Part shown: in pieces, positions 22,471 to 27,020 of the stretch
Layout of the letters: every line of letters begins with the position of its first letter
Numbering within the stretch: position 1 is the stretch's first letter
NCBI GenBank assembly: GCA_010093745.1
Contig: MU005989.1
Span: 2,776 to 66,775 of the forward strand
Direction: 5' to 3'
Length of the DNA stretch: 64,000 nt
Origin: Piedraia hortae CBS 480.64
Lineage: Eukaryota
Made by a program: the position numbers and the translations under genes
Notes under the pieces: generated by a model
Databases searched by the model: none
What the model was told of the DNA's origin: nothing
What the model saw: the letters and a program-made list of their open reading frames with translations, nothing else

Positions 22471-24155
22471 ATGGATCTCGAAGACCACTCGCCTCATGAG
22501 CCGAAGGCGTCTGCTCCGATCGCGACCGCCAGCAACGTCATTTTGATCGACAACTGTGAGTTTCAGAAAGTTTAAACGCGCGCGCAGGCAGCTAACGGCC
22601 TGGCTGCAGACGACAGCTTCACGTGGAATGTGTTTCAGTACTTTGAGTTGGAGGGCGTAAGCGCATCCTGATTGTCTGGGGTTTTGTGTCTAACAGGTCG
22701 GGATAGGGCAAGACGACTGTGTACCGTAACGATGAAGTCACGCTGGAAGAGCTGATCGCGAAGAAGCCAACGCATTTGGCCATCTCGCCTGGCCCTGGCC
22801 ATCCGGACACGGACGCTGGTATCAGCAAGGCGGCGATTGAGCATTTTGCAGGCAAGATCCCTGTGTTTGGCATTTGCATGGGGGAGCAGTGCATCTACTC
22901 CCTCTTCGGCGGTGTTGTTGACCAGACGGGCGAGATTCTTCACGGTAAGACGTCGACTTTGTGCCATGACGGCAAGGGCATCTACCGCGGCCTGCCTCAG
23001 GATTTTGCTGTTACGAGGTACCATTCGCTCGCTGGAACCCATCCAACGCTGCCCGAGTGCCTCGAAGTAAGCAGCTGGGTTCCGTCGGACGTAAGCAACG
23101 GCAAGGGAGTGATTATGGGTGTGCGTCACAAGAAGCTTCTCATTGAAGGTGTGCAGTTTCACCCCGAGAGCATCCTTACTGCTCATGGTCGCCAGATGGT
23201 TCGCAACTTTCTCCACATGCAGGGCGGGACGTGGCAAGAAAACGACTCGCACGCAGTCACCAGCGGAGTGGCTGCGACAAACGGCGACGCAAATGAGACC
23301 TCGATCCTCGAGCAGATTTACGCCCACCGCCGCAAAGCCGTGGCTGTACAGAAATCCACCCCGTCACAGACCTGGGACGACATTCAAGGGGCTTATAAGC
23401 TCCAATTGGCCCCTACTGTCATTGACTTTGCCGCGCGCATCCGGGATTCGCCTTATAAGATATCGCTTATGGCCGAGATCAAGCGCGCGAGTCCGTCCAA
23501 GGGCGTCATCTCCATGACGGTGAGCGCGCCGAAGCAAGCCCACGAGTACGCTATGGCAGGCGCCAGCGTTATCAGTGTGCTCACGGAGTCGGAGTGGTTC
23601 AAAGGCAACCTGGATGACCTTCGTTATACACGCAAGGTTCTCGACAAAGCGACCGACCGCCCAGCTGTGCTACGCAAGGATTTTATCTTCGAAGAGTACC
23701 AGATCCTCGAGGCCAGGTTGGCCGGCGCGGATTCCGTGTTGCTGATTGTCAAAATGCTCGACTCGGAGACGCTGAAGCGGCTGTACGACTATTCGCAGAG
23801 TTTGCGCATGGAACCCTTGGTGGAGGTGAACAACGAGGAGGAGATGAAGGCCGCTATTGCCCTTGGTGCAAAGGTTATTGGAGTCAACAACCGTAATTTG
23901 ACGACCTTTCAGGTCGATATGAAGACCACGACGAGGTTGCTGGATCTGATCAAGGGCCAGGAGGATGTGGTGCTCTGCGCATTGAGCGGCATTGCAACGC
24001 CACAGGACGTCATCGACTACCGTCAGTGCGGTGTCGGTGCCGTGCTGGTTGGCGAGGCGCTCATGCGCGCAGAGAAGCCGGTCAAATTCATCAGAGAACT
24101 GTTGGGCGGTCCGGATTGTCAGTCCTGGATCTGCTAACGAAAGCGAACAGAGTAG
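22471..24155 (+). CDS. trpC: Anthranilate synthase component II / indole-3-glycerol-phosphate synthase fusion (TrpG-TrpC), with no PRAI domain
   Basis: [11 protein letters not shown]...VILIDNYDSFTWN (introns 22556-22609 and 22657-22706). GAT motifs [33 protein letters not shown] motifs [32 protein letters not shown]. Ends at 24137 unspliced, or at 24155 if the 42-nt GT...GCTAAC...CAG intron 24109-24150 is used. Confidence 0.92.
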
Positions 24156-24233
24156 GATAGATATGAATTCTGCCGAATGTCAATCCATGATGAGTGCTGT
24201 ACAATGCCCTGGAAAAGGTAAAATTAGGTACGA

Positions 24234-24743
24234 TTACAATTCAATCTCCAAAAACACCCTGTCAGTAGGAGCGTTCCCGATGATGACGAGTTCAAAGCCA
24301 ACCCAGGCCACAAGGTCTTTGGCTTCCTGCTTGCTATCCTTGTGCAGTGCCACGATTAGCTTGTTCGCCCCAAGAACGTCGCCTGCTAGTTCCATTAGGG
24401 ATATTAGCCTATTGCAAGGTCAGCGACTAAGACAACACAACCTACAACGTCGACATACCCATTCCGGCCGATAGTGTCAAAGAACGCATAGACTGTTTTG
24501 TGGGTGACGAAACCCAGGATGCTCTTCTCATCGCGATACCACAGATTGAAGTTGGATTCCGGCTGGAGACCAAGGGAAGAGCTGTAGGGCTCGCACTCGC
24601 GGAGAATGGTCGAGGGCGCGCTGTCGTCTGTTGTATAAGTGGTTCCCTCAAACCCACCACCCCGGGCCTTTGCCCCCAGGAGAGGTGGATGTCATGTAAT
24701 ATCCGCGAAGTTTGTGACCGTTTAAAACGTAGGCTGATGCCAT
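24234..24743 (-). CDS. OAZ1: Ornithine decarboxylase antizyme (+1 programmed frameshift, 1 intron; ~152 aa)
   Basis: ORF1 24743-24648 is MASAYVLNGHKLRGYYMTSTSPGGKGPGWWV*. The +1 frame from 24649 reads EGTT...STILRECE...LW...ILGFVTHKTVYAFFD...G, then intron 24458-24409, then LISLMELAGDVLGANKLIVALHK...DLVAWVGFELV...DRVFLEIEL*. These match fungal antizyme motifs (LMALIELA, L.WVGFE). Confidence 0.9.
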
Positions 24744-24874
24744 AATTGATTGTCAGGTAGCAGTCGTAGATTTGGAGTAATGCTGTTGTACGAGTCGGAG
24801 AAAGTGTAGCGGAGAATGGGAAAGTTGAGGTTAATCTCGGAAGAGGTGGGGATCGTCTGACATCGGAATTACAA

Positions 24875-24904
24875 GCGGGGCGGGGGCGGGGGCGGGGGCA
24901 GGGC
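24875..24904 (+). repeat. G-rich tandem repeat (C/GGGGG)n between the PRP45 stop and the antizyme start
   Basis: GCGGGGCGGGGGCGGGGGCGGGGGCAGGGC: four runs of at least 4 G separated by single C. Confidence 0.7.
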
Positions 24905-24956
24905 AGAAACACGCTAGGTCGATTGCGGAATAGCGTCGGGACGTCAACTGCGAAAA

Positions 24957-26750
24957 CTATCTGGATAGATCCCGCCTGCTTCTTTTTTCCATGGGCCCAT
25001 CATCCTCACTCATCTTGCGCTTGCCGCTACCCCTCTCTCCCGATGCTTCTGCAATCAACGCATCAACCCCAAACGGATCCTTTCCTTCACGATGTGCCTC
25101 AAATTCTACTGGACCGCTCCGTACTTGTGCAACATCGCTCCCCCTGAATCCTTCCTTTGGAGCTTTGCCCAAGGCTTCGAATCGCTTAGCATTCTTGATT
25201 CTGTTCATAGTTTCTCCCTCATCTTCGTCATCGTCCTGGCCAGCTCCAGGCCTGTAGATGCTGTTCAAAGCGTCCCGATCGGCGAACAACGGTTTATCGT
25301 ATGGCTGGTCCTCGTTGAAGCCGGCCGCAAAGCCCGATGACTGGTTGAACAGTCGGCTATCGTACATGGCCTCCCTGCTCTGAGTCGGCTTGGCCAGGCC
25401 CAACGCCACCTTCTCCGAGATGTCGCGGTTCTGCTCCCGAGCCATAACCTGGATGCGACGCTGGTGGCCCATATTCTTCTGGCGCATCTCACGCTGCGCA
25501 ATTCGCCGCCTTTCCTGACGCGCGCGTTCCCGCTCCCGTCGCTCTTCATCGACAGCGTTGCGCGACCGTGAGCGGCGTCGTGGTGGTGTCCTGGTTCGTG
25601 ACCGTGAACGCGAGTACGACGGCGACCGAGAGCGGGACCAAGAACGCGATCGCGAAGAAGAATAGCTTGATCGGCTTGATCGGCTTGATCGACTCGGGCT
25701 GCGGCTCGTTCTCTCCTCGCGGGCCCTGCGCGCTAGCTCCCGTAGCTGCTCCTCTTTCTGCTCTTTCTCTCGTTCCGCTAGCTTCTGTTGCATCAATGCT
25801 CGCTGCTGTACTTCCTCGCGCGCGTGTCTGTCGGCGGCTTCCAGTGCTTCTGCAAACTGCGCAAACTTGTCGTTGTACGTGTTGTCTTGCAGTCCTCTGC
25901 CGTCTGCCGCGAGACGCTTGTCAAGCGGGATAGTGTACCCCTTGGGGTTCTTCCAGTTGGATATTGCTGGCGGGATTCTCCAAGCCTCCTGATCCGCGGC
26001 CGTGAGTTTGCGCGGAGGCGAGTGCATTACAGGCGGTGGCGGACTGGGAGGGCCCCGTGGGATCTTCTTGATTCGGTATTTCGGCGGCTCCATGGGATCC
26101 TGTTGCCGCTGCACAATCTTCATGATGCGCTCTCGCTTCGGCGCAACGTCACCCATCTGGCTCGTGGGCGTGTAGCGCACGAATGTAGGCGCCGCCCGCG
26201 TGGTATTCTTGATGTTCTTCGGCCTTTGGGCCGCCAAAGCACCGTCGACCAAGCCCTGCAAAGCCATCTGAGTCCGCTCCTTAGTTGCTTCAACCTCCTC
26301 CGCGCTCGGCTTCGCAAAGCTGATTTCCCCGATATTAGCACGCTGCCGCAAGGGGATCAAGTCCTTGAAGCTGGTGTGGATGATGCGCCCCTCGCTGTGT
26401 CCTCTACGTGCAATAGCGTCGTATCGCACCTTGCCTTCGGCATCTACCTCTACCGCCAGCGCATTTGAAGAAGAGGGTGTGTTCTTGCGCCCCATTTCTA
26501 GCGGATACTGAGCGACCAGAATTTCGGGAAATGCACCTCCATCTCCAAAGTCCTCCGGACCGCGAGGCCGCCATCCCTTTCGATGGCCATAGGGCGGTGG
26601 CCCCGACCGGCTCACCGCGACTTGCAATTCTTCGAGCTCGCGTGCGGCCACCACGCGAACGCCTTTCGTTTGCGGCGCATCGGGTTCGTTATTGACGTTG
26701 GCATATTTGGGCTTCGGAAGGGCGCGGGACAGCGAGGCTCCAAATGACAT
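24957..26750 (-). CDS. PRP45: Splicing factor PRP45/SKIP (SNW domain)
   Basis: DFGDGGAFPEI..AQYPL.MG, DPMEPPK, PPSPPPPVMHSPPRKLT, IPPAISNWKNPKGYTIPLDKRLAADGRGLQ, RDISEKVALG, YDSRLFNQ. Includes an RS-rich insert. Confidence 0.97.
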   Translation of the reverse strand: MSFGASLSRALPKPKYANVNNEPDAPQTKGVRVVAARELEELQVAVSRSGPPPYGHRKGWRPRGPEDFGDGGAFPEILVAQYPLEMGRKNTPSSSNALAVEVDAEGKVRYDAIARRGHSEGRIIHTSFKDLIPLRQRANIGEISFAKPSAEEVEATKERTQMALQGLVDGALAAQRPKNIKNTTRAAPTFVRYTPTSQMGDVAPKRERIMKIVQRQQDPMEPPKYRIKKIPRGPPSPPPPVMHSPPRKLTAADQEAWRIPPAISNWKNPKGYTIPLDKRLAADGRGLQDNTYNDKFAQFAEALEAADRHAREEVQQRALMQQKLAEREKEQKEEQLRELARRAREERTSRSPSRSSRSSRSSYSSSRSRSWSRSRSPSYSRSRSRTRTPPRRRSRSRNAVDEERRERERARQERRRIAQREMRQKNMGHQRRIQVMAREQNRDISEKVALGLAKPTQSREAMYDSRLFNQSSGFAAGFNEDQPYDKPLFADRDALNSIYRPGAGQDDDEDEGETMNRIKNAKRFEALGKAPKEGFRGSDVAQVRSGPVEFEAHREGKDPFGVDALIAEASGERGSGKRKMSEDDGPMEKRSRRDLSR

Positions 26751-27020
26751 GGTCTGTAAACTGACTTGTCGCCAGACGCGCGCCGTGAGGTTTGGGCGGA
26801 GCAGTTACGCTAAGCTGCATTAGGAAATCGGCACCTCCCTGTTTCTGCCCGTTAAAGGGCCATTTGAGCGAGTCGCGACTTTTTACACGCGCGTTCAGCT
26901 ATCTCACACAGCACTATGCAATTAAAGCCATCGGTGGATCAAATTCGCTAGAAAAGGAACCAGATAGTCTACTTGAAAACTATTTGATGCCTCTCCCGAT
27001 CTCAGATACAATCAGAATAA

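Follow-up and report, generated by a model that had tools for sequence, protein, structure and literature searches.

The locus considered here raises the question of whether a short reading frame of Piedraia hortae CBS 480.64 (Dothideomycetes, Capnodiales) that ends on UGA, and a longer frame that overlaps it in the +1 register, together make up a gene for an ODC antizyme. The window that we analysed, i.e., the whole 64,000-nucleotide stretch of contig MU005989.1, carries the candidate gene on the minus strand from 24743 down to 24234, and all parts of the gene lie on that strand. Our analysis suggests, with a probability of about 0.9, that this is the ODC antizyme gene of P. hortae and that it is expressed by +1 frameshifting at GUU-UGA. 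The mechanism, the gene family and the use of GUU-UGA in a dothideomycete were already published in 2007.

The first reading frame, ORF1 (24651-24743), consists of 31 sense codons, MASAYVLNGHKLRGYYMTSTSPGGKGPGWWV, running from an ATG at 24743-24741 to the P-site codon GTT at 24653-24651, and it ends in GGG TGG TGG GTT TGA with the TGA at 24650-24648. The original prediction had described a 31-codon ORF1 with the ending GGG-UGG-UGG-GUU-UGA and a stop at 24650-24648, and all of these figures were correct on re-reading. The start codon stands in the context tcaattATGgc, with A at position -3 and G at position +4. Because an in-frame TGA is located three codons 5' of this ATG, ORF1 cannot extend further in the 5' direction. 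A second in-frame ATG is present at codon 17 (24693-24695) in the weaker context tattacATGac; a start at this ATG (24695) would shorten ORF1 to 15 codons and the predicted product to 136 aa, compared with 152 aa when translation begins at 24743.

The shift site GUU-UGA (24648-24653) is followed by G and is directly preceded on its 5' side by UGG-UGG (24654-24659). In the +1 frame, exon 1 of ORF2 (24459-24649, 191 nt) begins with the codon GAG at 24649-24647, contains no ATG and stops 2 nt into a Gly codon that the intron splits. It is followed by an intron of 50 nt (24409-24458; GTATGT..CTGAC..ATAG), which has a branch-like CTGAC motif 11 nt from its 3' end and is shared with the public gene model, and by exon 2 (24234-24408), which contains the core of the ODC_AZ domain and ends with a TAA at 24236-24234. 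The spliced ORF2 is an uninterrupted run of 121 sense codons. Its sole Met is residue 69, within exon 2; no ATG occurs in the +1 frame ahead of this residue, and the frame is closed on the 5' side by a TGA at 24694-24692. The 121-codon +1 frame with a 50-nt intron and without any ATG before it had been predicted in just this form. We thus found the arrangement typical of antizyme genes, namely a short ORF1 that overlaps a domain-bearing +1-frame ORF2 lacking an initiator, and a UGA stop of ORF1 that is preceded by a known shift codon, GUU. The bare motif TGGTGNNNNTGA is unspecific, occurring 9 times in the window versus 2.47 expected. What gives it significance is the conjunction, and not the motif alone: right behind TGGTGNNNNTGA, the +1 frame encodes an ODC_AZ domain that has no ATG.

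The identity of the domain was assessed by profile and fold comparisons. The Pfam profile ODC_AZ (PF02100), for which the curated cut-off is 24.2 bits, matched exon 2 (57 aa) with 27.6 bits and the spliced 113-aa part of ORF2, as contained in the public protein, with 31.1 bits (E 2.4e-7), the latter alignment being limited to profile positions 41-94 of 114. Taken by itself, exon 1 had no Pfam match, and a search of the PDB by sequence gave no antizyme at E ≤ 10. A single-sequence AlphaFold2 model had a mean pLDDT of 62, with values of 76-81 in the beta-alpha core. When this model was compared with the PDB by Foldseek, ranks 1-3 were occupied by chains of human antizyme 1 (5bwa_B, 4zgy_B and 4zgz_D), with E values from 4.7e-4 (5bwa_B) to 3.4e-3, a TMq of 0.52 and an identity of 16-18%; the rows that followed were GNAT acetyltransferases. 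The structure search of the ESM Atlas likewise placed an ODC antizyme cluster in the top row (TM 0.76 over 106 residues) with GNATs next. The GNAT-like fold of the antizyme C-terminal domain was therefore recovered in a model of moderate confidence. An antizyme domain had been predicted for this frame, with a search against the ODC_AZ HMM named as its check, and both the scores above the cut-off and the fold closest to human antizyme 1 agree with that prediction. The +1 frame thus encodes a divergent yet genuine antizyme domain.

Relatives of this antizyme were not recovered in the databases searched. HMMER among 1.84 billion representatives returned no antizyme relative at E ≤ 0.001, and a word-index search with exon 2 found no protein beyond P. 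hortae's own public model; in the same kind of search with the 113-aa part of ORF2, none of the 30 candidates was scored. A metagenome scan that combined a sequence pattern with tblastn led to a single locus (L001, 1033-1194). We rejected it, because the match is to an Hsp70 gene read on its antisense strand, where ESNFNLWY occurs by chance, and it represents a false positive of this search route. The literature searches found PMC1874602 alone on GUU-UGA in antizymes, and none on an antizyme of P. hortae.

The shift site itself can be placed among those already described. According to the survey of antizyme sites in PMC1874602, UCC-UGA is used by the majority of the genes, and UUU, GUU, AUU, CCC, GCG and CCG also serve as P-site codons, GUU being among the seven that are tabulated in its Table 1. 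GUU-UGA is known in Aureobasidium pullulans, Cryptococcus neoformans, two algae of the genus Cryptomonas and two or more (shore) crabs, and Ivanov and Atkins (2007) argue for several independent origins of this site (PMC1874602). Within that paper, the entry for GUU in the Ascomycota in Table 1 is '-', whereas the text and the legend of Figure 1 give GUU-UGA for Aureobasidium pullulans. GUU-UGA is not a new site, having been in print since 2007 for a second dothideomycete as well as for other taxa (PMC1874602). The S. cerevisiae site, quoted in the original prediction as GCG-UAG, is actually GCG-UGA-C (PMC5009743), and GCG-UAG is found in some of its relatives only (PMC1874602). In the human and S. 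pombe genes, the sequence UGG-UGC abuts the shift site and represents module A, a stretch of 6-7 nt that is conserved at this place (PMC1874602, PMC5009743, PMC4505036). The UGG-UGG of P. hortae (24659-24654) occupies the same place and is identical to it in 5 of 6 nt, in a single sequence.

Two RNA stems flanking the site had been proposed as stimulators of the shift. The complementary pentamers do exist, GTGGT/ACCAC at 24660-24656 and 24643-24639 and GAGGG/CCCTC at 24649-24645 and 24616-24612, but they fold no better than shuffled sequences: the GUGGU/ACCAC hairpin had an energy of -7.8 kcal/mol (z -1.65), with 13 of 200 shuffles as good, and the UGAGGG/CCCUCG stem one of -7.9 kcal/mol (z -1.33), with 24 of 200 shuffles as good. 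Moreover, GUU-UGA is located in the loop of the first stem and the stop codon in the 5' arm of the second. With the shift or stop codon inside the stems, neither structure can exist while the ribosome occupies the site, and both were rejected as stimulators. The wider regions did not fold better than shuffles either, with z +0.63 for a 121-nt segment spanning the site and z -0.41 for the 78 nt that follow the stop, and Rfam gave no match beyond a chance one to DUF805b (E 7.4).

In antizyme genes of the N. crassa type, the 3' element is a stem-loop that starts 31-41 nt after the stop, with a loop of 18-130 nt and then 16 nt, after which comes GGAAGARUGUGAGAGR..., encoding EECER(L/F)FC(D/E) (PMC1874602, Fig. 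4A group). The P. hortae gene encodes R-E-C-E at 24601-24590, and within it the E-C-E (GAG-UGC-GAG, 24590-24598) is the only part of the peptide motif that is present, a resemblance that extends to 3 of the 9 residues. This R-E-C-E may be a remnant of the N. crassa-type motif. The distance from the stop codon to E-C-E is about 45-50 nt, which is too short for the N. crassa-type 3' element to fit, and the element as such was not found in the gene. Judging by its sequence, the gene apparently has no 3' stimulator. The same spacing is consistent with the earlier suggestion that the gene is compact and would lack much of the linker seen in other filamentous-fungal antizymes.

Among the known systems, that of Aureobasidium pullulans is comparable to that of P. 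hortae by shift site, class and layout; this fungus belongs to a different order, the Dothideales. Its antizyme gene has the same GUU-UGA, comes from the same ascomycete class and shows the same +1 two-ORF layout (PMC1874602). The N. crassa-type group, with N. crassa, G. zeae, M. grisea, A. nidulans and B. graminis (PMC1874602), shares with P. hortae the ODC_AZ domain in the +1 frame, the UGA stop and possibly the R-E-C-E remnant. However, the shift sites of this group are UCC-UGA or CCC-UGA and not GUU-UGA, and its 5' conservation reaches 95 nt upstream, whereas ORF1 of P. hortae measures 93 nt in all (PMC1874602). Mammalian antizyme 1 and S. pombe SPA (UGG-UGC-UCC-UGA) also shift by +1 at UGA and have UGG-UG on the 5' side, and the fold of the C-terminal domain of mammalian antizyme 1 matches the P. 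hortae model. In both of these the P-site codon is UCC instead of GUU. The P. hortae gene also differs from them in having no 3' pseudoknot, as shown by the absence of an Rfam match and of a significant fold, and in its predicted product of 152 aa, which is shorter than either of theirs. S. cerevisiae OAZ1 (GCG-UGA-C) likewise shifts by +1 at UGA but with a different shift codon (PMC5009743); its site is described as intrinsically very shifty, with flanking and nascent-peptide signals that act negatively (PMC5009743).

Whether the mature mRNA retains the ORF1 stop together with the frame break was addressed with the public run X1, which is only guessed to be RNA on record and in which half of the words sampled from 24100-25100 occur. 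The evidence from this run consists of contigs aligned to 23800-27000 from which rare variants were dropped, and it is uninformative on transcript ends. The first contig record, of 2885 nt and a mean depth of 310, matches the region 24702-24458 letter for letter and without a gap, then skips 50 nt (CT..AC, i.e., GT..AG on the gene strand), resumes at 24407 and passes 23800. Elsewhere among the contigs of the run, a poly-T loose end was observed. The intron-type joint together with the poly-T end argues that run X1 is RNA, and it probably is. The 50-nt intron is real: it is spliced in the contig. The dominant transcript, as represented by this contig, contains neither a joint that removes the UGA nor a joint at the acceptor of the public model, 24628, and the shift site is unchanged in it. 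In these contigs of presumed RNA, the mature mRNA thus keeps both the stop and the frame break. The original prediction had asked for RNA evidence that no intron removes the UGA, and the continuity of the contig over 24702-24458 provides it at a level at which rare isoforms are invisible; it had also named an error in the extra T as an alternative, and the same letter stands in the contig without any indel. The contigs leave 24703-25038 uncovered, an interval that includes the ATG at 24743, the intergenic region and the donor of the public model. The second ATG of ORF1 (24695) lies 7 nt 3' of the point at which the contig begins. In the gap between the upstream gene and the antizyme gene, a (GGGGCG)4.5 microsatellite is present at 24877-24903 (CCCCGC on the gene strand); these positions were skipped as a repeat in the alignment of the run, which may explain the contig break there.

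The only database protein that contains exon 2 is K470DRAFT_271286, a 'hypothetical protein' of 694 aa from P. hortae CBS 480.64, which carries PF02731 (SKIP/SNW) in addition to PF02100 and whose exons we reconstructed as 26750-25010, 24627-24459 and 24408-24234. If this model, which is present in NCBI and UniRef, were right, splicing of 25009..24628 would yield a Prp45-antizyme fusion and a frameshift would not be needed. The 382-nt intron that it implies (24628-25009, minus strand) has canonical GT..AG ends (GTGAGG..CAACAG), and its donor lies outside the coverage of run X1. However, the antizyme contig enters this intron by 75 nt, up to 24702, and shows no joint at 24628. The intron would take with it 17 residues at the C-terminus of Prp45, the stretch between the two genes, ORF1 with its shift site, and eight codons at the start of ORF2. 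A fusion made in this way would lack both the conserved end of Prp45 and 39 N-terminal antizyme residues. Left unspliced, the upstream Prp45/SKIP-SNW gene (24957-26750, minus strand) has a stop codon of its own, 213 nt from the antizyme ATG, and encodes 597 aa with the end ...EKRSRRDLSR. Prp45 lengths among the homologues listed (120 of the 4749 scored at E ≤ 1e-10) are mostly about 580-600 aa, and only one of these 120, which is K470DRAFT_271286 itself, carries ODC_AZ. We inspected the tails of ten of the 120, nine of which were picked for unusual length: a basic/acidic tail similar to it, K-R-x-R-V-D-D, was present in seven, other tails or unrelated extensions in three, and an antizyme tail in none. 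We therefore judge the 382-nt intron and the fusion to be an annotation artefact, its correctness being exceedingly improbable, and both genes to be in need of re-annotation. Mis-splicing of this gene by automatic gene callers had been foreseen, and the sole public model is indeed a Prp45 and ODC_AZ chimera that lacks ORF1 and the shift site.

Two other explanations were considered. The gene could be a decaying pseudogene, or its sequence could contain a one-base assembly error, so that the extra T would be a mutation or a sequencing mistake. The searches for relatives, which returned none that shows a conserved frame break, and the great divergence of the protein, with Pfam scores that exceed the cut-off by no more than about 3 to 7 bits, speak in favour of this explanation. 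Yet the break lies where all antizymes have it, the UGA of ORF1 comes after a published shift codon and UGG-UGG, and no stop interrupts the 121 codons of ORF2 on either side of a correctly spliced intron. An ordinary indel would not make ORF1 end precisely on the overlap. Furthermore, the contig from an independent library (run X1) has the same letters and no indel; since the extra T recurs in it along with the TGA, the assembly is unlikely to contain a base-calling error at this point. Decay or error is thus a very unlikely account of the locus. Alternatively, a minor splice form could remove the UGA and join ORF1 to ORF2 in frame. If only lengths of 35 nt or more are counted, 19 pairs of GT..AG sites would bring ORF1 and ORF2 into one frame that contains no stop codon; the pair that looks best spans 76 nt, from GTGGGT at 24657 to a CAG ending at 24582. 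None of the 19 is seen in the contig, which is continuous over 24702-24458 at a depth of 310, although rare isoforms escape contigs. In addition, most of the donors match the fungal consensus poorly, and the 76-nt form would cost the protein 24 residues, E-C-E among them. The chance that such splicing replaces recoding here appears minimal. Expression by +1 frameshifting at GUU-UGA remains our preferred reading of the locus.

The course of events proposed for this gene applies the established antizyme mechanism to what was found at the locus, i.e., the two overlapping frames, the initiator-less ODC_AZ domain and the contig that keeps the UGA. Ribosomes would start at the AUG of ORF1 and reach the position with GUU in the P site and UGA in the A site. 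At high polyamine levels, a fraction of them would move by +1, either by re-pairing of the Val-tRNA on UUU or by occlusion of the U of UGA. GAG would then be read next and the 121 codons of ORF2 translated, giving an antizyme of 152 aa. A Val-tRNA with the anticodon IAC would keep two of three pairs on moving from GUU to UUU, the same count as for Ser-tRNA moving from UCC to CCU. A move by -2 would land on GGG without pairing, which makes +1 the likelier path. A point against this reading is that G, the base after the stop, does not provide the weakest termination context. The UGG-UGG that abuts the shift codon is a likely 5' stimulator, as it holds the position of module A. Since no convincing 3' RNA structure was found, the shift in this compact gene probably depends on the site itself, on slow decoding of the stop and on the 5' context. 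The predicted antizyme would bind ODC monomers, inactivate them and send them to the proteasome, and in this way exert negative feedback on polyamine synthesis.

On its other side, the antizyme gene is adjoined by a convergent gene on the plus strand (22707-24137), which encodes GATase and IGPS domains (Pfam E 4e-42 and 2e-90) and whose stop codon is 96 nt from that of the antizyme. One contig of run X1 bridges the two genes, which suggests that their 3' ends probably overlap or abut. PRAI is the third domain of the GATase-IGPS protein in many filamentous ascomycetes; no PRAI-like ORF was seen on the plus strand at 24137-25200. The window contains no tRNA genes.

For the public record, these results amount to a correction: K470DRAFT_271286 is chimeric, and the real antizyme, with ORF1 and the shift site, is missing from the annotation. 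Automatic callers can be expected to repeat this error with any antizyme gene that they encounter. The scientific gain is small, and what is mildly interesting is the compactness of the gene and the apparent absence of the 3' element of filamentous ascomycetes. We tentatively raise the possibility, which we regard as rather doubtful, that GUU-UGA is no sporadic variant but the ancestral antizyme shift site of a whole clade of Dothideomycetes, one that includes both the Capnodiales and the Aureobasidium lineage, and that the P. hortae gene is a natural minimal cassette, with a 31-codon ORF1, no 3' RNA structure and a product of 152 aa. If this were true, UGG-UGG-GUU-UGA-G would suffice for polyamine-sensing frameshifting, and the gene would be a convenient small system in which sensing by the site itself could be told apart from the action of accessory stimulators. 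The textbook example of a ribosome that senses a metabolite is antizyme frameshifting, and each new lineage-specific site enlarges the catalogue from which its essential features can be found.
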